A DNA stretch of 64,000 nucleotides. Origin: Christensenellales bacterium. GTDB taxonomy: Bacteria; Bacillota; Clostridia; Christensenellales; UBA1750. Each line of letters begins with the position of its first letter. Positions within the stretch are counted from its first letter, which is position 1. The DNA lies in the NCBI GenBank assembly GCA_050942895.1, contig JBMNOE010000002.1, forward strand, positions 130,710 to 194,709, given 5' to 3'. Under the pieces are notes generated by a model. That model was not told the origin of the DNA and made no database searches. It saw nothing but the letters and a program-made list of their open reading frames with translations. The position numbers and the translations under genes are program-made. Shown in pieces: positions 367 to 12,633 of this stretch.

Positions 367-1290
367 TCATTCGTCCTCGCCAAAGCCGATGGTGCGCGAA
401 ATAATATAAAGCGGGCGGTTCATGACCTCCTCATATATGCGCCCTATGTATTCCCCAAGCACATACATGCTCACCATCAAAACCCCCGTAGCAAGCAATA
501 TCGCCGCCACGATATAGCTTCCTTCGCTCAGCTTCGTAATCATGCATACGATGAGCAGCACCAGCCCCGCCAGCAGCGAAAGCACTCCCCCCGATAAAAT
601 AAACCTTATCGGCTTTGTTGAAAAGGAATATATCCCGTCGAAAGCCAGCTTCAGCATCTTCTTTAAAGGATATTTTGTCGTTCCCGCAAAGCGCTTCTGG
701 CGCTCAAACTCATAAGGAACCTGCTTGAACCCCACCCAACTCACCATGCCCCGAAGGAAAGTGCCATGTTCATTCATTGATAAAATAGCGTCCTTCACAT
801 TACGGCCGATAAGCCTAAAGTCCCCTGTATCCGCGGGAATTTCTATGCCCGCCAGCATGTTCAGCACCCTGTAGAAGGCAAATGCGGTAAACTTTTTAAA
901 GACGCTCTCCCCTTCCCGGGATATCCGCTTGCCGTAAACCACGTCATAGCCTTCGCGCCACCTTTCCAGCATCCCCGGTATCACCTCCGGCGGATCCTGC
1001 AAATCAGCATCGATTATTACTACCGCATCTCCGCTCGCCTTTGAAAGCCCCGCCCTCACCGCCATCTGGTGACCGAAATTCTTTGCAAAGTCGATTATCT
1101 TCACATGCCCATCCCCCGCAGCCGCCTCCAAAAGCACATCCACCGTGCCATCGCGGGAACCGTCGTTGACGAATATCATCTCATAGTCCATATCCATCTC
1201 CGAAAGCACTGCGCTCAGCCGCTGATAGGTGTATGCGATTACTTCCTTTTCATTGTACATGGGCACCACAAGCGATAAAAGCATATGCAA
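367..1290 (-). CDS. Family 2 glycosyltransferase of the polyprenyl-phosphate sugar transferase type (dolichyl-phosphate mannosyltransferase, ArnC or GtrB-like), with C-terminal TM helices.
   Basis: N-terminal VVPMYNE...FVNDGSRDGT...DADLQDPP motifs typical of GT2, and a hydrophobic C-terminus. Confidence 0.8.
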   Translation of the reverse strand: MHMLLSLVVPMYNEKEVIAYTYQRLSAVLSEMDMDYEMIFVNDGSRDGTVDVLLEAAAGDGHVKIIDFAKNFGHQMAVRAGLSKASGDAVVIIDADLQDPPEVIPGMLERWREGYDVVYGKRISREGESVFKKFTAFAFYRVLNMLAGIEIPADTGDFRLIGRNVKDAILSMNEHGTFLRGMVSWVGFKQVPYEFERQKRFAGTTKYPLKKMLKLAFDGIYSFSTKPIRFILSGGVLSLLAGLVLLIVCMITKLSEGSYIVAAILLATGVLMVSMYVLGEYIGRIYEEVMNRPLYIISRTIGFGEDE

Positions 1291-1356
1291 ACCCTCTCTT
1301 TTCTTTTACTTGCTAACGCATATAAAATACATACGGACAGAACCGACAACGGAAAA

Positions 1357-1794
1357 CTATTTTGAGTCATCCTCAATAAAACGTATTTCCCCGGGCAGCA
1401 TCAGCCCCAACTGCTCCCGCGCGAAGCTTCTCACATAGTCATCCGTTTTCATGTAATTTAAAACTCTAAGCATCTCGTCATTAACCGCCTGTGCCTCCTC
1501 GATATCGCTCTTGAGAGCCTCCATCTCCGCCCGTTGCTTCGATATGCTCCCGTATTGGCTTAAAATCGACACCGCCCCTATAATTATCACAAACATGCAT
1601 GCCAGAAAAAACGCCAGCCTCCTGTAGCGTCTTCTCCTGGCGCTATTACCGCTCGTCCTATTTTGGGGCACAAGCTTTAGATCCGCTTTTTCTCTTCCTT
1701 CGCCTGATTTGGCCAAATCAATACCTCTTTTGCAGAAGGAGCAATAATAACGGTTTATTATTACTGCTTTCCTGATGAATATAATATACCACAT
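1357..1794 (-). CDS. divIC: Septum formation initiator (DivIC/FtsB family). The start codon is uncertain.
   Basis: Basic stretch RRRRYRR, one TM segment, a coiled coil and a C-terminal YVRSFAREQLGL...GE motif. Sits downstream of yabP-yabQ as in Bacillus. Confidence 0.65.
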   Translation of the reverse strand: MWYIIFIRKAVIINRYYCSFCKRGIDLAKSGEGREKADLKLVPQNRTSGNSARRRRYRRLAFFLACMFVIIIGAVSILSQYGSISKQRAEMEALKSDIEEAQAVNDEMLRVLNYMKTDDYVRSFAREQLGLMLPGEIRFIEDDSK

Positions 1795-1830
1795 TATAGT
1801 AATTTCTAAAAGGGTTCTTTATATCACTTC

Positions 1831-2199
1831 CTATTTGAGCATATTTTTCCCAAAAGAGGTAGACCTAAACCACTTCACCGCTCTTTTGAAAGCGCCGGAG
1901 ATTTTTTCAGTCATAAAATTCACTATGGGTGTTACCGCCGATTTGAACAGCAGATACCCGGCGCCGAATCCCAGGGCCATGTACAGCCTGATATCCCCGT
2001 CGTTTGCCAGCACGGATACGATGAGTATTATCGCCCCGGCCAGCATCCAAAACGAAATATCCGCCGCCGCGGTTATCAGCAGCCCCCTGCCCGCAGCCGA
2101 TCGCACAATTCCCATAAGATCGTAAACAAGGCCTATGGCAAGGCCTCCGTATATACATGCAAGAAAAACCGGCCACTGGCCTACCGATTCAAACAACAT
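1831..2199 (-). CDS. yabQ: Spore cortex biosynthesis membrane protein YabQ. Called from the internal Met; the longer ORF would overlap yabP.
   Basis: Small polytopic membrane protein immediately downstream of yabP. Conserved yabP-yabQ-divIC order. Confidence 0.6.
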   Translation of the reverse strand: MLFESVGQWPVFLACIYGGLAIGLVYDLMGIVRSAAGRGLLITAAADISFWMLAGAIILIVSVLANDGDIRLYMALGFGAGYLLFKSAVTPIVNFMTEKISGAFKRAVKWFRSTSFGKNMLK

Positions 2200-2203
2200 G
2201 GCC

Positions 2204-2500
2204 TTACTTAAACAGCCTGGACAGCATCCCGCCCTTGCCGGATGGGGAGTCGATATCGTCATATTCAATGGCGTAGATGAAGCCGTCCACCACCAGCAGC
2301 CCTTCCTCAAGGTTAAGCTTGGATATATGCAGATTCTGTCCGCTCAGTATTATCGCCCCGGACGACGTTATCATTACCACCTGTTCGTCGTTAAAGCTTT
2401 CCACGTCCTGTACGCCGCTGAAAACCGCCCTTTCGCGGTTGTCCAAGGCGACAGTGTGCTTTACCGGCCTGATGGCGCTCTGTTCGATCTCTTTGTTCAT
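2204..2500 (-). CDS. yabP: Sporulation protein YabP.
   Basis: 98 aa. Motifs VALDNRERAVFSGVQDV...EQVVMITSSGAIILSGQNLHISKLNLEEG are typical of YabP. Confidence 0.85.
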   Translation of the reverse strand: MNKEIEQSAIRPVKHTVALDNRERAVFSGVQDVESFNDEQVVMITSSGAIILSGQNLHISKLNLEEGLLVVDGFIYAIEYDDIDSPSGKGGMLSRLFK

Positions 2501-2627
2501 GAGCCTACCTCCTTTTACACAAACATATTCACTCCCCCCGGGGAATATTACATCCGCTCCCTTGCATTTCTTCTTGATTTCTGTTACTATTAACGTAACA
2601 AATAATTACGAACGCCGGTGATATAAA

Positions 2628-2999
2628 ATGAAAATTAAGGAGTCAGCAGAGAACTATTTGGAAGCCATTTACATGCTCAAAAAGAAAAACGGGCAAGTCC
2701 GCTCGATAGACGTAGCCACTCATCTGCAGTTTTCAAAGCCAAGCATCAGCTATGCCATGAAGCGCTTTCGCGAGGACGGCTACATCACCATGGACAAGGG
2801 CGGTCTCATCTCCCTTACTGAAAAGGGCACGGAGGTCGCCGAGCGGGTGTATGAACGCCACAGCCTCCTGAGCAAGTACCTGATAAGCCTCGGGGTGAGC
2901 GAGGAAACCGCCATCGAGGACGCCTGCAGGATGGAACATGTGATAAGCGAGGAAACATTTGAAAAGATGAAGGCCAGCGCCGCAATGCGCAATCTGTAG
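2628..2999 (+). CDS. DtxR/MntR-family metal-dependent transcriptional repressor.
   Basis: 123 aa with an N-terminal winged HTH (ENYLEAIYML...SIDVATHLQFSKPSISYAMKRF) and a metal-binding/dimerisation helix region. No SH3-like tail. Confidence 0.8.
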   Translation: MKIKESAENYLEAIYMLKKKNGQVRSIDVATHLQFSKPSISYAMKRFREDGYITMDKGGLISLTEKGTEVAERVYERHSLLSKYLISLGVSEETAIEDACRMEHVISEETFEKMKASAAMRNL

Positions 3000-3046
3000 A
3001 AAAAAGATAGCATTATATATTATATAAAGAAATACTAAAGAAAGAA

Positions 3047-3087
3047 GAGCCCCGGGCGAAGTATATTCACCGGGGCTTTTTATTTTT
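3047..3087 (+). terminator. Rho-independent terminator after the DtxR-family gene.
   Basis: Stem agccccgg/ccggggct followed by tttttattttt. Confidence 0.7.
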
Positions 3088-3180
3088 GCAGCACCACAGG
3101 ATATATGCGCCTTTTGCAAAACATAAAAGAAAAAGAAGCTCGTTCTCGTTAAAACAAGCTTCTTCCGGCCAAAGTTTTCG

Positions 3181-3219
3181 CAGGCCATCGGGGACTTGTC
3201 TCCCCCGCGCCCTGATTAA
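3181..3219 (-). other. Degenerate copy of the tRNA-Lys 3' half (acceptor arm, T-arm and the 3' side of the anticodon stem). Candidate distal att repeat.
   Basis: aggccatcggggact...cgccctgattaa matches 5589-5627 of the intact tRNA-Lys. 15 and 12 nt are exact and overall identity is about 80%. Same orientation as the tRNA. Confidence 0.55.
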
Positions 3220-3473
3220 AATTTATAAAATTTAGTTTCTTCGTTGCCTAAAGGCTGCCATCTGCTATGGATTTGCATATGATTGCATTTTCACACTTCA
3301 TATAGCTGCGCATATGTGCGTGGGGCGAATTGGCGCACTTCAACTGGCAGTCATGGGGTGCGCGCTGTATTCGTCCGAGGCAAAAAGACATCTCTCTTTC
3401 AAGAAACTGCCATGCAAAGGCTGTCTTCGGCGCGGCAGTAAGCATACCTCTTTTTTGTTTCACAGCATCTTCA

Positions 3474-3512
3474 GGTATGCTCTCTTACATTTTATTTCAA
3501 AATGTGGTATAA
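3474..3512 (+). promoter_or_regulatory. Sigma-A type promoter with an extended -10. It is TTACAT, 17 nt, TGgTATAAT, and lies upstream of the CarD-like gene.
   Basis: ctcTTACATtttatttcaaaatgTGgTATAATagt. Confidence 0.5.
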
Positions 3513-3678
3513 TAGTATTACGGCGTGTAGTTTTTGCAGGCGTAGATCCAGTTGTATGAACTGCGCTCTTTTTCTTATTTACCATTCTAGATTGCGTGCT
3601 CTGGTTTAAAAACGTCCAGCAAGCATTGCGCAAAAACATTGCCGAAAACACCACATCCGGTATAAGACAAAAGGGAAG

Positions 3679-4230
3679 TTGGAGGTGAAAAAAATATTTA
3701 AGATCGGAGATTTAATTGTTTATGGTGGCACCGGCGTTTGCCGGGTAACAGATATTTCAGTATGCGACATTTCGGGAAAATATGAAGACCAACTGTTCTA
3801 CACATTCCGTCCATTATGTCAGGATTGCATTATTTCCATTCCGGTAAATACCACAAAGGTTTTTATGCGGCCAATCATATCAAAGGATGAAGCGAACCGG
3901 CTAATCGATATGATACCGACGATTCAAGCAGAGGCTTACCACAACCCTATATCAAATGAGCTAATCAAGCATTATGAGACATTGCTAAATACCCACGATT
4001 GCATGGAGCTTATTGAGCTTGTTATGTCCCTTTATGCAAAGAAGCAATATATGAAAGAGAATAACCGTAAATTTGGAGCGGTAGACTCGCGGTTTATGAA
4101 ACGGGCGGAGGAATCGCTTTTTGGGGAATTTGCCGCTGCTCTTGAAATTCCGAAGGAGAGCGTGCCGGCCTATATTGCAGAGCGCATAGGCGAAGAAACA
4201 GGACTCGATTTAAATGAATCTGTAAAATAA
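3679..4230 (+). CDS. CarD/CdnL/TRCF-family protein (RNA-polymerase-interacting domain). It is encoded inside the low-GC islet. The start may be TTG at 3679 or GTG at 3685.
   Basis: N-terminal FKIGDLIVYGGTGVCRV resembles the CarD N-terminal Tudor-like domain. The surrounding DNA is visibly AT-richer than the flanks. Confidence 0.55.
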   Translation: MEVKKIFKIGDLIVYGGTGVCRVTDISVCDISGKYEDQLFYTFRPLCQDCIISIPVNTTKVFMRPIISKDEANRLIDMIPTIQAEAYHNPISNELIKHYETLLNTHDCMELIELVMSLYAKKQYMKENNRKFGAVDSRFMKRAEESLFGEFAAALEIPKESVPAYIAERIGEETGLDLNESVK

Positions 4231-4399
4231 AAATACGGCCATTGCCAGCTTTTGGGTGCTTAATCGCCAGAGGATCATTTATGACCATGTTTCATTTCCA
4301 TAAAAATGTAGCAAGAAGGAATTTCTTTTCTGTGAAATGCGCGGCCGATGTCAAAAAGCGCTCAGCCGGCGGCTGTAAATTAGTTTAGAATTTAATCAT

Positions 4400-4432
4400 A
4401 ACCCCCCTCACTTTGAAGGGGGGTTTTATCTA
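4400..4432 (+). terminator. Rho-independent terminator.
   Basis: aacccccct cactttga aggggggtt followed by ttatctat. Confidence 0.6.
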
Positions 4433-5470
4433 TATCTATAAGCGTTATTCGATATTGTAAATTGTCAGCTTTGCGGACCAAGTATATGACCATGTATAAG
4501 AACATCCATTGATTTAAGCAATACCCCATAGCGCAGAGCATACACCCCGCCCCATGCTAACCATTAAGATAAGCGATAGTGCAGCATATGCATACTGTTG
4601 AAGAATGCGCCAAGGCACCAAATACGGTTCTTATGCAGCGCTTGAAAGATATGCGCTGAATATCATATGAAGTTTTGCCGCCTGTTTTACTCAACCTTTG
4701 TGCTGCGCCTTATGATAGCAAAAGCCCTTTCACAACACCGAAAGCAGAAAGCCTTGGCAAGATAAAGCAACGCCGAAAACCCCCGGGGTATGGCGCAAGA
4801 ATATTGGCATCAGGCCTGCGATCATATCAAGTCATATGCATATATATGGGGGGGATTTGATCAAGCGCAAACGCCGTGTTCTAGTTACATGGTGGCTGTC
4901 CTAAACATTGGTAATGCGCCGATGATGCTTTCCATCGTTTCTCATATTAACGTCGTTTCCAGCCTGGAAGAAACGATACGGGCCAATAGAGCGGCACTCA
5001 CCATTATGGAGCGTGATAGGACTGCGAAATGATGCTGACCTTCATACGTTACTGTACGGTGGCTAACGCATATTAGGACTATTTTTCCGACAGAGGCTTT
5101 AGCGAGGGAAGACTTTACGGTATATCTTGCAGACCCTGCTCTTAAATCCATTGATATAGCTCCTAATAAAGCGGCGCGGTATTTCTTATATTCAAGCGCA
5201 TAGATTACATTGGGCAATGATTTAAAGATAGTGACCAAGTTGGACCGTAATGTTGCCGACAGAATAAAGCGGAAAGTCAAATGTTCGTTTGGAGGGCCTT
5301 TCATAGCGCGGCTTTAACCGCCATTCTTTGATTGATGTGCTTTCGGCAGGAGTGAGACGGCTATAGCCCCATGGAGGGCCTGACAGCGCCGATGCCGCCG
5401 GAAAGGCTGACTGCTGGCGGGGATGGGATTGATCCGATGCTTAGAGTGTTGCTTAACGCGCCATAAAGAA

Positions 5471-5515
5471 AGATAAAAAAATAAGGCTGCCATGCGGCGG
5501 CCTTATTTTTCTTTT
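5471..5515 (-). terminator. Bidirectional Rho-independent terminator downstream of tRNA-Lys.
   Basis: A-run, then aaggctgcc atgc ggcggcctt, then T-run. Confidence 0.65.
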
Positions 5516-5584
5516 CGTTTGACATCGATTCCGAAAACACCGTTGACGAAAATGAAATGGGGTGAGTTCGGATTTGAAATGCTA

Positions 5585-5660
5585 TGGTAGGCCATCGGGG
5601 ACTCGAACCCCGGACGCCCTGATTAAGAGTCAGGTGCTCTACCAACTGAGCTAATGACCC
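5585..5660 (-). tRNA. tRNA-Lys (anticodon CTT) with an encoded CCA.
   Basis: The reverse complement gggtcattagctcagttggtagagcacctgactCTTaatcagggcgtccggggttcgagtccccgatggcctacca folds as a cloverleaf. It has D-arm gctc/gagc, anticodon stem cctga/tcagg, a 7-nt loop cuCUUaa and T-arm cgggg TTCGAGT ccccg. Confidence 0.9.
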
Positions 5661-5893
5661 GCATACTTGGGACTGCGGCAGTGAATTTAGGCCGTGCATA
5701 GCCGTTTTAAGGGCATATGCATCTTCTTTCAGATTGCGCTGAAACCCTCCGGCCTCAAGTCACTGATTAGTATTATATCCAGTCTTTTACGCCTTGTCAA
5801 CCCTAAATGAAAAAAAGACGTAAAAAAACATGCTGTAAAATGCAGAACAAAACAGAGGGCAACCCCCGGTGCAGATCGGCAGGACAGCAGGAG

Positions 5894-6331
5894 TTAAATC
5901 ATGTAGTCCTCACAACCGCCCAACACCCGGCTGTCAAGCATGTCCTGCAAAGTGACGCTGTCCAGATATTCGTTTATAACTTTGCTCAGGCCCTGCCAAA
6001 CGGGCAGCGTGGCGCAGTCGCCGCTCCTTACGCATTTAACCGGATCATTCTCCAGGCAGGCCACCGGCGCAAGGCTGCCCTCCATTATCCTGAGTATGTC
6101 GCCCACGGTGTATTCGGCAGGCGGCTTGCTCAGCCGATATCCCCCCTGAAACCCGCGGCTGGCCCGCAAGATGCCGGCCTTGTTCAGTGAAGGAACTATC
6201 TGCTCCAAATATTTTTTTGAAACTCCCTGTCTTTCGGCTATGTCCTTAAGAGCGATATAGCCCTCGCTTTGGTTTTGCCCCAAGTCATAAAGCATCCTCA
6301 GCGCATATCTTCCTTTTGTCGATATCTTCAT
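5894..6331 (-). CDS. Rrf2-family transcriptional regulator, IscR/CymR-like, with three Cys as candidate Fe-S ligands.
   Basis: MKISTKGRYALRML...wHTH, and CLENDPVKCVRSGDC matches the CX(n)CX5C pattern of Fe-S Rrf2 proteins. The internal Met start was chosen. Confidence 0.8.
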   Translation of the reverse strand: MKISTKGRYALRMLYDLGQNQSEGYIALKDIAERQGVSKKYLEQIVPSLNKAGILRASRGFQGGYRLSKPPAEYTVGDILRIMEGSLAPVACLENDPVKCVRSGDCATLPVWQGLSKVINEYLDSVTLQDMLDSRVLGGCEDYMI

Positions 6332-6411
6332 TTTAGCACCTCGCTGTACCAAGATGATAACATATATCCGTGCGGCTTTCAATATCACCATTTATTTGCT
6401 GCTGTCCATTT

Positions 6412-7149
6412 TCACTCATAGCTGAAATATTCGTTTGCAAGCATCACCGAAACGCGATCTGCCTCATCATGCCTGAAGTGCTTCTTTGCAAACATGGAGT
6501 AATATTCCTTTCTGGTCACGATTATGTGATCGGCCAGCGCAATATCCAGCACATTCAAAGCCTGCTTAAGGCTGTTTGTGGCTTCGACATCCTCCTTGGA
6601 CGGCACAGTCACACCGGAGGGATGATTGTGGGTGAGAATCACCGCAGCGGCGCCGTTCCTTATGGCAATTTCCGCAATGTTTCTGGCATACAGCGGCGCT
6701 TGAGCAAAGTTCCCCCGTTGAATTATCTGGGCTCGTATCAGCTTCATGTCCGCCCCCAGGGAGAGCACTGCCACGCATTCTGTGCGCTCTGAGCCAATCA
6801 GCCGCATGCAAAATCTTCCCGCTGTGGCGGAGCTGCTCATTTTTTCCGCAAAAAAGTCCTCGTGCTTTAGATCCACATAGCGGACGCTCTCCTCCACCAG
6901 CTTTATCAGGGTGGCCGTGTTCGCACCCACGCCCTTGGCTCTTATGAGTTGGCCGTAGTCTGCCTGCAGCACTCCTCTCAGGCTTCCAAACTCCCTTATC
7001 AGGCTGTGAGCCAGGGGATTAACATCCCTTTGTGGTATTGAATACATCAATATAAGCTCCAGCACCTCGTGCTCGCTGAAGTTATCAAGTCCTTCGTTGC
7101 GGAATCTGTTTTTAAGGCGCTCTCTATGTCCTTTGTGAATGTTTTCCAT
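6412..7149 (-). CDS. radC: RadC-family JAB-domain protein (UPF0758).
   Basis: An HhH region followed by a JAMM motif (ILTHNHPSG). Confidence 0.8.
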   Translation of the reverse strand: MENIHKGHRERLKNRFRNEGLDNFSEHEVLELILMYSIPQRDVNPLAHSLIREFGSLRGVLQADYGQLIRAKGVGANTATLIKLVEESVRYVDLKHEDFFAEKMSSSATAGRFCMRLIGSERTECVAVLSLGADMKLIRAQIIQRGNFAQAPLYARNIAEIAIRNGAAAVILTHNHPSGVTVPSKEDVEATNSLKQALNVLDIALADHIIVTRKEYYSMFAKKHFRHDEADRVSVMLANEYFSYE

Positions 7150-7219
7150 TGCTTCACCCATTAGTATTCTATCAAAAAACGGCGCAGATGCAAGCACCCG
7201 CGCCGTATGCAGTTGGTTT

Positions 7220-7378
7220 TTATTTTTCCATGTTTGTCGGCGGCCTTTCCTGCGGGCCCGCCTACCCGCGCTTCCTGCGCAAATGCTAAACTTATTTTTC
7301 CATGTTTGTCGACGGCCTTCCCTGCAGGCCCGCCTACCCGCGTTTCCTGCGCAAATGCTAAGCTTATTTTTCCATGCC
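7220..7378. repeat. 72-bp tandem direct repeat. Two full copies lie at 7220-7291 and 7292-7363, and a partial third copy is the 3' end of the DUF4340 gene. Each full copy carries the palindrome gcgggcccgc.
   Basis: Period 72. The copies are about 92% identical. The unit begins ttatttttccatg, which is the MEK-stop end of the gene. Confidence 0.85.
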
Positions 7379-8980
7379 GTCGATGGCGGTGAGAATATTG
7401 GCCACCTTTTCCTTGCTCATGAAGAAATAGTAGTCTTCCGAGATGGTGGTTTTAACAGCATAATACAGTGACTTATACGGCACGTAGCTTACCACAAAAT
7501 CCTCCCAGTTTTGCTCATCCAGATATCGGAACGTGATCTTGCAGTATTCCGCGCCCTCGCTCAAGCCCTCTCTGTTCAACTTGCCGTCCTGGTCCAAGGG
7601 CAGCGCGCCCTCAACCGTTACGCCGATTATTGCCTGATACATGGTCCTGAACGCCTTTTCATCCTGAGCAACTCCGTTTATATAGTAGCTGTAAAGATAG
7701 TCCGTCTCCCCGTTGGACAAAAGCTTCACTTTGCCTTCTTCGTCATACTGAAGCTCCCGGTCGGTCACCATGTTAAATGTCTTTCCGTTTATTTCAACAT
7801 CCAAGCCTTTAAGGTCAACGATATTAACAAGGGATGCGAATATGGACGAAAACGTGAACGCCTTTGCATCCAGCACCTGTTGGGCATATGATGCGGCTAT
7901 TGTGAACACATCGCCGGGTATCTGGGGAGACCAGGCAAAGTAATCAGAGCTGGAATACTTGCTTCCTATCAGCAGCTCAAGGGCGGCGCCATCGGTATCC
8001 TCCAGATAAAGCCTCGCGGGTTTGTCCTCCGGTGAGAGGCCGTATTGGGATAGATCATCCGCCGGGCCGATATAGCTTTTTATTGCTATGCTTCCCATGG
8101 AGGAGATGAATGTGGATAGATATTCCGTGTCGGCGTCCACAGTATAGGGCTTGCTTAAATGCCAGTTTGCAAGGCCGGGGGAACGCGCTCCCTCCTCATA
8201 GGGCTTAATCTCAATAACGCCGCTGCTGTTTTCCACCACCAGCAAAGCCGGAGACTCAACGTCGGGCATCGTCAGCGACGAGCTCTTTCTCATAGTGGTG
8301 TAGTCAGAGGTCATGTAGTTGCCCACGTTCGCCCACACCAGAAATATTTCGTCCCTGCCTTCGGCCATAAAGTACCATGTGTTCGCCGTGGGCGATTTGC
8401 TGCCCAGGTAATATGTTCCCTCCTCGCCATCGGTATAGCTCACTTTTGCAGTGGCAAGAGGCGGCTCAAAGCCGAACTCCGCCTTGCGGGAACTGTTATC
8501 CTCCACAGTGTCCTCTGTGGTAAGGGCCGCAAACACATAGAGTATGGAGCCGGCGCTGGTCTGGTTCAGGGGGAAGTCCGGGTCGCTCTCGACATATATC
8601 TGCCCCTCGGCGTCCATAATATAAACCGTCGTCTTGCCATCATGGCTTAACTCCACCCTGGAAACATCATCTTTCACCCTCTGGGACAATGTCACCGGCC
8701 GCTTATTGTCAACTATCTCTGTGGGCTCCTCCGGCCCGGGCATAAGAGCCTGGGCAAGGAAGAAGATACCCACCCCAAGGGCGCAGATGATCAAAGCTAT
8801 CAGCAGCACTTTGCCCCTGTTGGTTTTCTTGATCTCTTTGTCGCCCCGCAGATCCTTTGACGAAGCCAGACGATACACCGGATCGCCGCTTTCGGTTTCG
8901 TTTTTTACATCATCTTTTATATCGCTTTTTATGTCGTTGTCAAGTTCGCCTTCTTCGGCGCGCCTGTTCTCCTCGTTCAT
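7364..8980 (-). CDS. DUF4340-domain protein. It is the fourth gene of the GldG-type ABC module and has an N-terminal TM anchor and an acidic low-complexity head.
   Basis: 538 aa. Its position immediately downstream of the GldG-like gene and its general composition match DUF4340 partners. Confidence 0.5.
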   Translation of the reverse strand: MNEENRRAEEGELDNDIKSDIKDDVKNETESGDPVYRLASSKDLRGDKEIKKTNRGKVLLIALIICALGVGIFFLAQALMPGPEEPTEIVDNKRPVTLSQRVKDDVSRVELSHDGKTTVYIMDAEGQIYVESDPDFPLNQTSAGSILYVFAALTTEDTVEDNSSRKAEFGFEPPLATAKVSYTDGEEGTYYLGSKSPTANTWYFMAEGRDEIFLVWANVGNYMTSDYTTMRKSSSLTMPDVESPALLVVENSSGVIEIKPYEEGARSPGLANWHLSKPYTVDADTEYLSTFISSMGSIAIKSYIGPADDLSQYGLSPEDKPARLYLEDTDGAALELLIGSKYSSSDYFAWSPQIPGDVFTIAASYAQQVLDAKAFTFSSIFASLVNIVDLKGLDVEINGKTFNMVTDRELQYDEEGKVKLLSNGETDYLYSYYINGVAQDEKAFRTMYQAIIGVTVEGALPLDQDGKLNREGLSEGAEYCKITFRYLDEQNWEDFVVSYVPYKSLYYAVKTTISEDYYFFMSKEKVANILTAIDGMEK

Positions 8981-10606
8981 TTACAGGTGCCTCCTTCTAA
9001 GCCATACAACTATGCCAATCAGCAAAACCACCAGGGGTATTCCTATGGCGCCCACGCCTGCGGCCACATATATCTGCGTGTAAGAGGTGAAGCTTAAAAC
9101 ATCCTCCATCATGCTCTTGCCGATGATGTTGACCACTTCGGTGTCCTCGTTTTGCATATATTTGACTGTCTGCAGGAACAGATCCGCGTTTCCTCCCAGG
9201 GTATAATATGACGTGAGGAATGCGTTGGAGCCGAAAACCACCATCCTTGCGTTCTTCGTGGGATCTGCATGATCGTTTATCATCTCCGCGGACATGGCAA
9301 TCACAAATGGGCCGTCGGTATCGCCCTCCTCTTTTTCGATAACCGTGGACTGAAGGTTCGTCTTGCCGTATGATGTGTCGGATGTGGTCAGTATGTTTTC
9401 AACCGTCAGCAAGCTGTTGCGGATATCAAGGTTTACCAGGGAGTGGCTGCCCTGCATGTATGCCGCCAGATTATTCGACCTGAGGGTGGATGTAACCTTA
9501 TGGCTGCCAAGCTGCGGAACCACCACCGAGGGCGAATAGAAGTAGTAATTTGCGCTGCCTTCAACAACTACATCCCTGCTCATGCCGATGCCGAAAACGC
9601 TCAGCAGTTCCTCAAAGTTGGGCAGCTCCAGCCCCGGTGTGGAAAGGTATATCAGCCTTCCTCCTTGGTTCATGAAGCCTTTAAGCTGCTCCAGCTCCTC
9701 GCTTGAAATATCCCTTTGGGGGGCGGTAATCACCAGAGTATCGCCCGAGACCAGCGCCCCAAGGCCCATGGACTCGATGGTCAGGCACTCAAAGTTCTCC
9801 CTTTGCAGGTAGGTCTGAATGTCGCTGTAGTAGGATATGGGTGTTTCGCCGTGGCCGCTGTACCAGTAAACTTTTGGCGATGTTTCGCTGTTGACATACA
9901 AAAGCGCGTTTGTCAAAGCGTCCTCACCCTTGAAGGCGGCGTCGATGATCTGCGAGTAGGTGCTGTCGTATTGATACTGATAAAAATCAGACTGGGTCAA
10001 TACCCTGAACTTGCTGGCGTCCTCTCGGGAAACTATGACCGATCCGCCGCTGATGGCGCTGATGGCACCCCCAAGGAACTGGTTTGTGAAGGTCGGGTTC
10101 GCAGTGGGGTCAACATATTCAACCTTCACAAGGCTGTTTTGCTTTTGGATATTGTCAAACAGCTTCACATAGTCCGGGTAGCTGTCCTTGGTCGCCTCCG
10201 GGAACATGGCGTATATGTATATATCCTTGTCCAGCCTGTTTATGACGTTCTTGCTGGTCTGGGAAAGGGTATACTTTCTGTTCCTAGTAAGGTCCAGGTT
10301 AAGGTCAAGGCTGTTGGTCAAAGCGGTCACGCCAATGTTTACCGCCACAACCGCCACCAGGACGATCAATATCAGCACAGTGCTGTATGTGCCGTATTTC
10401 ACATTTTTGGATTCACGAAAGCGCCTGAAGAATCCGGATATGCTTTTGCCGGCTTTTTTCCTGCTGCCTTCGCCTTTTCCTTCTTTTTCTTCCTGACCGC
10501 CTTGGACTCTATCCTTGCTCTCGTCCATTTCTTTTTCTTCTTTAATTTCTTTTACTTCTTTCATATCCTTGTTCTCGTTAATATTATTGCTCATATCAGC
10601 TTTCAC
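8981..10606 (-). CDS. GldG-family ABC-transporter auxiliary component.
   Basis: 541 aa. It has a Lys/Glu-rich N-terminus, an N-terminal TM segment, a large extracytoplasmic domain and a C-terminal TM segment. It sits downstream of the ABC-2 permease and ATPase. Confidence 0.6.
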   Translation of the reverse strand: MKADMSNNINENKDMKEVKEIKEEKEMDESKDRVQGGQEEKEGKGEGSRKKAGKSISGFFRRFRESKNVKYGTYSTVLILIVLVAVVAVNIGVTALTNSLDLNLDLTRNRKYTLSQTSKNVINRLDKDIYIYAMFPEATKDSYPDYVKLFDNIQKQNSLVKVEYVDPTANPTFTNQFLGGAISAISGGSVIVSREDASKFRVLTQSDFYQYQYDSTYSQIIDAAFKGEDALTNALLYVNSETSPKVYWYSGHGETPISYYSDIQTYLQRENFECLTIESMGLGALVSGDTLVITAPQRDISSEELEQLKGFMNQGGRLIYLSTPGLELPNFEELLSVFGIGMSRDVVVEGSANYYFYSPSVVVPQLGSHKVTSTLRSNNLAAYMQGSHSLVNLDIRNSLLTVENILTTSDTSYGKTNLQSTVIEKEEGDTDGPFVIAMSAEMINDHADPTKNARMVVFGSNAFLTSYYTLGGNADLFLQTVKYMQNEDTEVVNIIGKSMMEDVLSFTSYTQIYVAAGVGAIGIPLVVLLIGIVVWLRRRHL

Positions 10607-11315
10607 TCCATCTTCTTCTCTCGATGACCCTGGCGGTTAAAAACGCGAACACGCCGAAGAACGACAGCATGTAGACTATGTCGGAAAGAGAGATTATGCC
10701 GTATGCAAAGTTATAAAACCTGGCGTATATGTCCACCGAGCCGATGATATCGTCAAGGAAGGGCAGAAAGTCCACCTTGGCGTAAACGGCTATCGAGCCC
10801 GCGAAGTACAGGGCGATCATGGCGCCAAAGCCCAGTATGGCGGCTGTGACCTGGCTTTCTGTCAAGGCCGACATCAGTGCGCCCACAGCTATCAGCCCGC
10901 AGCCCAGCAGAAAGAAGCCGAAATAGCCTGTGAAAACCTCACCGTAGGCAGGCGCGCCGAATATGTCGATAATTATTACATATATAAATGTTATAAGGAG
11001 CGTGATCAGGAAGATGAAACATGCGGCAAATATCTTGCCCAGCACCATTGAGCCTATTGAAACAGGCGAAGTCAGCAGAAGCTGGTCCGTCTTTGTCCTG
11101 CGCTCATCGCTGAATAGCTTCATGGTCAGTATCGGCACCACTATCATGAACAGGAACTGAAGATTCCCAAGAAGGGTTCCAATGGACGCGGACATGCTCA
11201 TGATATTGCTCATTGCAAAAAAGATTCCGCTTATGAGAAGAAACATGCCCATGAACACAAAGCCGATGGCGCTTTGCAAATAGGCCCTCACTTCTCTTTT
11301 AAAAATGGCAAACAT
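10596..11315 (-). CDS. ABC-2 family transporter permease (GldF-like).
   Basis: Polytopic membrane protein of 239 aa. Its start overlaps the ATPase stop. Confidence 0.7.
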   Translation of the reverse strand: MFAIFKREVRAYLQSAIGFVFMGMFLLISGIFFAMSNIMSMSASIGTLLGNLQFLFMIVVPILTMKLFSDERRTKTDQLLLTSPVSIGSMVLGKIFAACFIFLITLLITFIYVIIIDIFGAPAYGEVFTGYFGFFLLGCGLIAVGALMSALTESQVTAAILGFGAMIALYFAGSIAVYAKVDFLPFLDDIIGSVDIYARFYNFAYGIISLSDIVYMLSFFGVFAFLTARVIERRRWSES

Positions 11316-12262
11316 TATTCAATTTCCTCCTTTTCTGCGGTAACGCGAAGGAATATGTCCTCAAGGGTGAATTCCATGGGCTTAAGCATTATGATGGGCC
11401 TGCCCGCTTTGGCAAGGGCAACGAAAAGGGGCCTTCTGACATCCGTCCTGCTGCTGGATTCGACAATAAAATCGCAGCTGTCGGCCTCCTTGACGCCCAT
11501 CGACTGAGCGTATGTGACTCCCGGCACGCTTTTAAGTATCTTTAGCGTCTGTTTTTCATCCCCATGGATGCGGATGCTCAGATGGGCGGCTTCGTTCATG
11601 CCGCTGGTGAGGTTTGAAAGCAGATCGCTGGCGACGATCTTTCCCTTGTTGATTATAACAACCCTTTCGCAGACATCCGCCACCTCCGGCAGTATGTGGG
11701 AGGAAAGAACCACGGTGTGGTGTTTGCCCAGCTCTTTTATCAGCCTTCTGATATCGATAATCTGGCGCGGGTCAAGGCCGACGGTGGGCTCGTCCATAAT
11801 GACCACCTTGGGGTTGCCAACAAGCGCCTGGGCAAGGCCCACACGCTGCTTATAACCCTTAGAAAGGTTCTTGATCATTCGGCCATAGACATCGCCTATT
11901 TTGACAAGATCGATTATATCGTCTATATGCCCCGTCTGCTTGTTCCTTAAAACGCCCTTTATATCGCACACGAAGTGCAGGTAGTCCTTCACCGTCATCT
12001 CCATGTAAAGGGGCGGCTGCTCCGGCAGATAGCCGATCTGCCTCTTGAATTCCCGAGGGTTTTCAAGGATGTCTATGCCGTCCAGCTTAACGGAGCCGGC
12101 ATTAGAGGATATGTAGCCGGTGACGATGTTCATCGTCGTGGTTTTACCGGCGCCGTTCCTGCCAAGGAAGCCGAGAATCTCGCCGTCGTTGATGTTGAAG
12201 GATACGTCATCAACGGCAAGCTTATCGCCATAACGCTTGGTGATATTTTTTATTTCAATCAA
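11315..12262 (-). CDS. ABC transporter ATP-binding protein (GldA-like).
   Basis: Walker A GRNGAGKTT, signature LSKGYKQR and Walker B VVIMDEP. Confidence 0.9.
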   Translation of the reverse strand: MIEIKNITKRYGDKLAVDDVSFNINDGEILGFLGRNGAGKTTTMNIVTGYISSNAGSVKLDGIDILENPREFKRQIGYLPEQPPLYMEMTVKDYLHFVCDIKGVLRNKQTGHIDDIIDLVKIGDVYGRMIKNLSKGYKQRVGLAQALVGNPKVVIMDEPTVGLDPRQIIDIRRLIKELGKHHTVVLSSHILPEVADVCERVVIINKGKIVASDLLSNLTSGMNEAAHLSIRIHGDEKQTLKILKSVPGVTYAQSMGVKEADSCDFIVESSSRTDVRRPLFVALAKAGRPIIMLKPMEFTLEDIFLRVTAEKEEIE

Positions 12263-12633
12263 GGCTTTTCCCTCCTTTAGGTCTAAAATGGATTATACAG
12301 ATTTCTTTTTACAAGCATATGAACTTTTTGTAAACAAGCCGCATTAATGCCTGTCTTAGCTGCATTTGTGTTTTTGCCGCGGTTTGATGGGCTCTTTCAC
12401 ATTTTCTTTCACCTTATTCGCCTTCCATATATCCTGTCGACACAAAGAGCCCCACAGCTTCTATTTATAAGGTTTCATCAGCATTTTGTCAAATAGAAAC
12501 ATTTTTATGCGCCACGGGGCAACAATTTGCGCGGCCGAGGCTGTGTATACTCATGCCATACGCGAAGGATATTTAATACAAGCCGGTTAAGCACCGCTGA
12601 AAAAAGCTGAAAAAAGCAGGAGGGGATTTGGTC

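Follow-up and report, generated by a model that had tools for sequence, protein, structure and literature searches.

The DNA analysed here is a 64-kb stretch (hereafter the window) of contig JBMNOE010000002.1 from a Christensenellales bacterium, and its subject is an AT-rich segment of 2.4 kb that lies between a tRNA-Lys(CTT) gene and a displaced copy of the 3' part of that gene. The tRNA gene is intact and is the only one that ARAGORN finds in the window. Its 3' part (5589-5626) reads AGGCCATCGGGGACTCGAACCCCGGACGCCCTGATTAA on the plus strand, and a second copy of this part, in direct orientation on the same strand, reads AGGCCATCGGGGACTTGTCTCCCCCGCGCCCTGATTAA at 3182-3219. The shared region starts at anticodon position 35, takes in the 3' anticodon stem, variable loop and T-arm and closes with the 3' acceptor strand; the two copies agree at 31 of 38 positions, in exact blocks of 15 and 12 nt with a degenerate middle. 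When the exact blocks are held in register as the pattern AGGCCATCGGGGACT-N12-GCCCTGATTAA (15 nt, N12, 11 nt), the window matches at these two places only, and the 100 shuffles that served as control contain 0 matches even when up to 3 mismatches are allowed, so that none is expected by chance. An initial annotation, made by a model from the letters of the DNA, had already pointed to a 38-nt repeat of the tRNA 3' part in the same orientation, with 15 plus 12 exact nucleotides and a degenerate T-arm, and each of these points holds, its coordinates being off by one base. The degeneracy lies where that annotation put it but is not random, all seven mismatches falling inside 11 nt (3197-3207; P = 5e-4, permutation), a cluster that covers the variable loop, 5' T-stem and T-loop of the displaced fragment. 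The discriminator base and CCA of the fragment are also changed (GCG versus ACCA), and its altered stretch at 3197-3207 can still fold into a short hairpin of 5-6 bp. An array of tRNA pseudogenes, raised in the same annotation as another possible source of the similarity, is not what lies here, given that the copy is a lone 3' fragment starting in the anticodon loop and that the 64 kb hold a single tRNA gene.

A search with the Rrf2 regulator adjoining the tRNA gene yielded two close relatives of the locus, L090 and L089. The first, a Joint Genome Institute (JGI) metagenome contig of a related species, has the gene order of the window free of the insert (GT2-divIC-yabQ-yabP-mntR, tRNA-Lys, rrf2-radC), with protein identities of 73-97% (MntR 97%, YabP 96%, RadC 87%, Rrf2 85%) and a gap of only ~150 nt between mntR and the tRNA gene. 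When the two are compared by blastn, L090 positions 1-1894 correspond to window 1076-2999, 1992-2088 to 3126-3219, and 2047-3691 to 5585-7233. Because the 3' part of the L090 tRNA matches both window copies (3175-3219 and 5585-5626), the window carries an insertion of 2,407 bp, and the blastn pattern is the signature of an insertion with target duplication. The 3' part of the window tRNA gene (5585-5660) is identical to that of L090, and in L090 the tRNA gene is succeeded by a hairpin and T-tract that align to window 3126-3180, immediately left of the displaced fragment. The initial annotation had proposed that an empty site would show itself in a relative whose tRNA gene is followed directly by the sequence left of 3181, and this is what L090 has, its tRNA-Lys leading straight into the old terminator and mntR-yabP-yabQ-divIC; the opposite outcome, related strains with the same content and no empty site, was not encountered. 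In the alignment with the empty site, tRNA homology ends at a TTAA within the anticodon loop. A short AT-rich tandem or palindromic sequence, TAAAATTTA in two copies, lies beside this TTAA breakpoint at the left junction of the insert (3217-3234).

The second relative, L089, is an NCBI metagenome-assembled genome (GCA_050309705.1) with an Rrf2 protein 88% identical to that of the window. At 42 nt after the same tRNA-Lys gene it encodes a tyrosine integrase of 407 aa with Phage_integrase and SAM_3 domains that reads towards the tRNA, and the contig stops before the distal junction of its element. An integrase 89% identical to that of L089 is found on L266, an 8.3-kb phage contig, with phage early genes (DUF551, DUF3310) on one side and a lysis cluster of holin, amidase and XkdX on the other. 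Between this integrase and the holin gene, at L266 5497-5547, lies a 51-nt block that matches tRNA-Lys positions 26-76 at 50 of 51 nucleotides, and which we read from its sequence as the putative phage attachment site (attP). Within this small clade, three conditions of the tRNA-Lys(CTT) site are thus on record: it is empty in L090, holds a phage-type element with an integrase in L089, and holds the remnant in the window. In IMG/VR, 80 loci with relatives of the L089 integrase (26-40% identity) contain a tRNA-Lys fragment in no case, a result that is uninformative on the attachment site.

The composition of the inserted DNA differs from that of its surroundings. Its GC content is 43.8% versus 52.0% for the window (standard deviation 2.9% across stretches of 2,365 nt), which makes it the lowest-GC stretch of its size in the 64 kb (0.5 percentile). 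At third codon positions, the GC content (GC3) of its one intact gene, which encodes a CarD-like protein, is 42%, whereas that of the nine other genes measured is 55-72% with one exception. These values bear out the earlier impression that the enclosed DNA is richer in AT than its flanks, and composition across the locus is not uniform. The anatomy of the insert (Table 1) also agrees with the first description in that the segment has its own promoter and terminators (3484-3513; 4400-4425 and 5477-5510), a CarD/CdnL-like gene with a match to CarD_TRCF_RID, and a stretch without credible open reading frames (ORFs), given before as about 1.1 kb and here as about 1.05 kb (4426-5476). The lack of an integrase is confirmed by a six-frame Pfam scan of the insert at E ≤ 1 and by tblastn with the L089 integrase against 3220-5584, both of which gave no match, and fragments of an integrase or recombinase are not detectable in 4231-5584, where the initial annotation had recommended looking for them. 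Rfam gave no match on 4426-5476, six-frame fragments of the insert found no counterpart in 3.1 Mb of fetched loci, and blastn searches of phage and plasmid collections revealed no DNA match to the insert. A 120-aa ORF at 4942-5304, called as a gene in one assembly, was rejected, a search of 1.84 billion representatives having returned only the ORF itself and a few repetitive proteins. Because the old terminator of the tRNA gene stayed behind at 3131-3166, the element-borne hairpin at 5477-5510 now serves as its terminator.

Table 1. Features of the tRNA-Lys(CTT) locus and of related loci (window coordinates unless a contig is named; strand "." where neither strand is assigned).
Feature	Position	Strand	Evidence and remarks
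Original intrinsic terminator of tRNA-Lys, now parted from its gene	3131-3166	-	Terminator-like; orthologous hairpin and T-tract directly after the L090 tRNA
Displaced 3' fragment of tRNA-Lys(CTT), distal direct repeat of the insertion	3182-3219	-	31/38 identical; joined to the flank homologous to L090
Inserted foreign DNA	3220-5584	.	2,365 bp (2,407 bp with one repeat copy); absent from L090 between tRNA and terminator
Cargo promoter	3484-3513	+	Promoter-like; -35 CTTACA, extended -10 TGGTATAAT; same promoter conserved in L083, L177, L086 and L085
Conserved leader hairpin and T-tract (candidate attenuator or small RNA)	3519-3583	+	Covariance model R1, 72.4 bits; minimum free energy -15.3 kcal/mol
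Possible remnant of an 86-88-aa Cys-rich ORF, with in-frame stop	3583-3639	+	tblastn, 9/19 identities to L085_86, E 0.01; weak match in a 300-nt search space
CarD-fold gene, intact, 181 aa, GTG start	3685-4230	+	Pfam CarD_TRCF_RID (PF02559), 34.5 bits, cutoff 23
Bidirectional terminator 3' of the CarD-like gene	4400-4425	.	9-bp stem, 6 G-C pairs, T-tracts on both strands
Non-coding debris	4426-5476	.	~1.05 kb; no detectable gene, pseudogene or RNA family
Element-borne bidirectional terminator, now ending the tRNA-Lys transcript	5477-5510	.	15-bp stem; inside the insert, 75 nt past the tRNA 3' end
tRNA-Lys(CTT), intact	5585-5660	-	ARAGORN; Rfam tRNA, 67.4 bits
Chromosomal tRNA-Lys promoter (TTGACA, 17 nt, TATAAT)	5772-5800	-	12/12 consensus match; kept in L089 and L090
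Leader hairpin in relatives	L083 4775-4838; L177 3638-3702; L086 7773-7836; L085 7552-7616		Upstream of CarD-like cassettes
Block carrying CarD-like relative P0030	L258, L260 and L262 about 1528-12537; L261 1983-12537		Starts at a tRNA 3' end

With the empty site in L090, the integrase of L089, the attP block of L266 and the atypical composition in hand, the earlier suggestion of a decayed tRNA-integrated element is supported, and we consider it very probable that an integrative mobile element, of which 3220-5626 is what erosion has left, entered the chromosomal tRNA-Lys(CTT) gene by recombination of the tyrosine-integrase type, crossing over in the anticodon loop. The catalysis by an integrase and the formerly larger size of the element are inferred. 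On the type-A crossover model, an element with a matching attP would have recombined at the anticodon loop, and the copy borne on attP would have restored the tRNA gene, so that 5585-5626 would be supplied by the element. The host 3' part would thereby have been moved 2.4 kb off, to survive as a mutating fragment together with the old terminator and the mntR/yabP flank. Later deletions would then have taken the integrase and nearly all other genes, with the consequence that the insert could no longer excise on its own. What survives would be a unit resembling a phage moron, made up of promoter, leader hairpin, a CarD-fold gene for a protein lacking the tryptophan wedge of CarD, and terminator, together with ~1 kb of non-coding debris.

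Several observations weigh against this history. The clustering of mismatches in the displaced repeat is not predicted by plain neutral decay of a host-derived fragment, and under a type-A crossover the displaced T-arm, being derived from the host, would once have been perfect; the cluster may stem from one event that altered several bases, or successive elements may have left a mosaic. The insert retains no trace of an integrase or excisionase by which to name the enzyme and the type of element (prophage, integrative mobilizable element (IME) or integrative and conjugative element (ICE)). Beyond the tRNA block the insert is without similarity to the L266 phage or to the L089 element, and its repeat begins at tRNA position 35, 9 nt further 3' than the attP block of L266, which begins at position 26. 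Searches of IMG/VR viral contigs did not find the CarD-like family. Finally, sampling of the clade is poor, so that the empty site is known from a single genome and a different occupant from one other, and the choice between gain by the window lineage and loss from L090 depends on composition and on how patchily the cargo gene is distributed.

This last point bears on the view that the islet is ancestral to the species group and was lost from the L090 lineage by excision or by a deletion between the repeats. There is just one empty-site genome, the heavy decay of both insert and distal repeat implies considerable age, and, as the L089 contig ends early, a CarD islet could lie beyond its element. 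Nevertheless, such a loss seems unlikely to us, given that the GC and GC3 values of the insert are still clearly atypical, that tRNA, spacer and terminator join without a seam in L090, in colinear order with window 3126-3180 and the tRNA, and that an exact deletion would be needed, after loss of the integrase, between repeats that share only 15 + 12 exact bases; moreover, it would alter the timing of the insertion and not the nature of the feature. Less probable still is an islet that was never larger, that is, a cis-mobilizable, satellite-like segment without an integrase of its own that was inserted in trans by a helper integrase of the L266/L089 type, even though sequence resembling an attachment site and derived from the tRNA lies at both ends, a phage in close relatives uses the same tRNA at the same sublocation, and the cargo is compact and self-contained. 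Of the 2.4 kb, some 1.05 kb neither codes nor matches anything, which looks like debris rather than streamlining; the cassette is truncated, with the 116-130-aa partner protein of its relatives absent and the 86-88-aa ORF present only as a doubtful fragment; the distal repeat lacks the 5' anticodon-stem arm that is present in the L266 attP and is mutated at its centre; and neither exact-protein look-ups nor blastn of the phage and plasmid collections turned up a second copy of the islet anywhere. The idea that the repeat arose by local partial duplication of tRNA-Lys, or is a decayed second tRNA gene with native DNA between and no mobile element involved, draws on the occurrence of tRNA genes in tandem arrays and on the degenerate T-arm of the copy. 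We regard it as extremely improbable: the copy has no 5' half and starts exactly inside the anticodon loop, no other tRNA gene is present in the 64 kb, and the intervening DNA, which is compositionally foreign and carries a gene from a family found on mobile elements, is contradicted as native sequence by its complete absence from the empty site of L090.

tRNA genes are classic landing sites of integrative elements, and decayed remnants that have lost the integrase are common. In the Islander survey (Hudson, Lau & Williams 2015; Williams 2002 cited there; PMC4383910), the canonical crossover subsites are the anticodon loop, the T-loop and the junction of T and acceptor stems, the anticodon-loop subsite 'A' accounts for 2,083 of 3,919 islands, and a tyrosine integrase gene (PF00589, not of Xer or integron type) is required within the island. 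Like these tRNA-gene (tDNA) islands, the window insert is bordered on one side by a regenerated, intact tRNA gene and on the other by a displaced direct 3' fragment, and it has a crossover of the 'A' type, foreign composition and an empty site in a relative. Unlike them, it has no integrase gene, is very small (2.4 kb) and mostly non-coding, and its displaced fragment is only 82% identical to the tRNA. Since it agrees with the Islander definition in all respects but the integrase gene, we class it as a decayed tDNA islet without an integrase. The temperate phage represented by L266, with its integrated relative in L089, offers a second comparison, in that it uses the same tRNA-Lys(CTT) in the same clade with an attP block that extends between the anticodon stem and the CCA end and so covers the same crossover region; it differs in that its DNA and proteins show no similarity to the insert and in that the recovered part of the L266 phage has no CarD-like gene. 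The cis-mobilizable elements known as CIMEs are degenerate products left by decay of ICEs and IMEs, and phages carry comparable cargo units termed morons. As in these, repeats resembling attachment sites flank a short segment without an integrase, and the gene that remains is served by a promoter and a terminator of its own and differs in GC content from its surroundings, although mobility of the islet in trans, as for a CIME, is unlikely given the mutated distal repeat. The feature is, in short, an ordinary decayed tDNA islet, which is a well-known type of genomic scar. It nevertheless marks tRNA-Lys(CTT) as a hot spot of integration in a poorly sampled Christensenellales lineage, and it accounts for the presence of a CarD-family gene of foreign composition at this locus, which cautions against calling that gene a housekeeping CarD/CdnL.

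The product of this gene has the two-domain fold of CarD/CdnL. Although its CarD_C score of 17.9 bits is under the Pfam cutoff of 23.1, phmmer aligns residues 2-149 with the full length of CdnL (2LWJ; E 2.5e-7), and an AlphaFold2 model built on a 63-sequence alignment (predicted local distance difference test (pLDDT) 89; predicted template-modelling (pTM) score 0.84) superposes in Foldseek on full-length Thermus thermophilus CarD (4L5G) with template-modelling (TM) scores of 0.72/0.79. On this alignment and model, the C-terminal helical domain is present in spite of the score. The fold is thus shared with CarD/CdnL (4L5G, 4KBM, 2LWJ) over its full length, from the N-terminal Tudor-like RID to the C-terminal helical domain, whereas sequence identity is only 19-22%. 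[quoted passage not shown] These residues are replaced in the window protein and its subfamily: the Trp is aligned to Ile and Arg-Arg to Asn-Glu in the window copy, while the subfamily has Val, Ala or Ile at the wedge position, and 110 of the 120 closest relatives contain no Trp at all. The lack of the wedge sets the window protein and these relatives apart as a distinct subfamily that is not housekeeping CdnL, and the gene is therefore CarD-like, or CarD-fold, rather than CarD/CdnL proper. The subfamily (window protein and P0002-P0120) has the conserved motif AYHSRxLRELxEHYExxLKTHDC, and the window copy deviates at 4 of 52 highly conserved columns, where the subfamily median is 2. By analogy with CarD, the protein may bind the beta lobe of RNA polymerase.

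A further difference from CarD/CdnL is that genes of this type are accessory and mobile instead of core, and are usually paired with a second gene. The closest relatives other than the window protein itself do not exceed 73% identity and come from unrelated neighbourhoods, where the CarD-like gene is usually followed by one for a protein of 116-130 aa whose N-terminus has a weak match to the PcrA/UvrD-Tudor domain (E 0.022). On the strength of that match, this partner, the gene for which is missing from the window, would be a second putative binder of an RNA polymerase lobe. Some relatives adjoin UvrA-like, pentapeptide-repeat or RecA genes, and some are near integrase fragments. An intact ORF for an 86-88-aa Cys-rich protein, of which the window may hold a remnant (Table 1), precedes the CarD-like gene in L084, L085 and L263, and this family has a match in phrog_27214 (E 1.6e-12), a family of phage proteins without an assigned function. 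The relative P0030 and its partner are carried on a block of >10 kb that ends in MobC and a relaxase and is 97-99% identical in three different chromosomal flanks, its genes encoding, in order, a VbhA-like protein, a DEAD helicase, CSD, CarD-like, the 130-aa partner, HTH, GGDEF, AAA_25, MobC and relaxase proteins. The block starts at the 3' end of tRNA-Thr(CGT) and, in L261, of tRNA-Ala(CGC). The T-arm and 3' acceptor part of this tRNA-Ala are identical to those of tRNA-Thr(CGT), and the gene is therefore a hybrid made by the element. The CarD-like family is thus accessory and mobile, and is carried on tRNA-associated mobile elements. PHROG and PADLOC searches with the CarD-like protein gave no match, and the GenBank phage and plasmid collections contain only distant relatives of 27-40% identity. 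Since the family is not found in IMG/VR and only distantly in phage and plasmid records, the insert more probably descends from an integrative mobilizable element or an island than from a phage.

The promoter of the CarD-like gene is followed, from about +3, by a hairpin with a stem of 13-16 bp, a nearly invariant 16-nt loop and a T-tract, and promoter and leader together retain 71-75% DNA identity across the four closest cassettes. In two loci the leader sits upstream of a UvrA-like gene that precedes the cassette. The covariance model R1 was built from five sequences, among them window 3519-3583, so that its score there is that of a member of the model. Whereas the 5' arm and loop are nearly invariant, the 3' arm varies by G-U, A-U and G-C swaps; 95.8% of the pair cells are standard pairs, and one-sided changes are seen in 12 of 19 pairs. 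An inverted repeat acting as a DNA operator is less likely, because the 3' arm changes keep G-U pairs on the plus strand only. Rfam has no match to the leader, the motif was not found in IMG/VR, and a search with R1 of ~2.1 Mb of other fetched loci returned no further copies, its weak matches resembling generic terminators. The conservation of the five sequences suggests that the leader may be an attenuator or a small RNA, and we offer it as a lead.

A more speculative reading, which we hold to be possible but on the doubtful side, is that the surviving cargo has been domesticated from a mobile module, as yet uncharacterised, whose target is RNA polymerase. Our reasons for raising it are that the CarD fold of the protein comes without a Trp wedge and that relatives of the protein travel on elements or islands that integrate at tRNA genes and bear relaxases; that the usual partner of these proteins resembles PcrA/UvrD-Tudor and their frequent neighbours are UvrA-like, pentapeptide-repeat and RecA genes; and that the closest relatives share the conserved 5' leader hairpin-terminator without an Rfam match. 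If correct, mobile elements would carry in this module a competitor or modulator for the site on the beta lobe of RNA polymerase that is used by CarD, Mfd and UvrD, and the module would have its own switch at the RNA level. A Trp-less mobile subfamily of the CarD fold with a Tudor-like partner and a leader hairpin may thus pose a question about how mobile elements deal with host RNA polymerase.

Other searches with genes flanking the islet show how sparsely the locus is represented. In exact-protein look-ups with window genes, the only contigs retrieved are 100% identical to the window and represent the same strain. A scan of species-representative contigs with the MntR-like protein gave 80 loci (L003-L082; 55-69% identity), none of which has the yabP/tRNA-Lys neighbourhood. 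The MntR-like repressor gene itself (2628-2999) has no conserved neighbourhood in these 80 representatives and is syntenic only in the close relative L090. Among the matches listed from a scan of metagenome contigs with an Rrf2 alignment, relatives are at most 77% identical and without synteny, and L090 is not among them. The Rrf2 protein P0125, with 73% identity, was rejected as marking an orthologous site, as it belongs to a different Rrf2 locus adjoining a PALP-domain gene. On the other side of the tRNA gene, between radC and the next gene (7220-7376), the window contains a 72-nt tandem repeat of 2.2 copies with 94% identity, and the L090 alignment skips ~127 nt here, so that the relative seems to hold fewer copies of this repeat.

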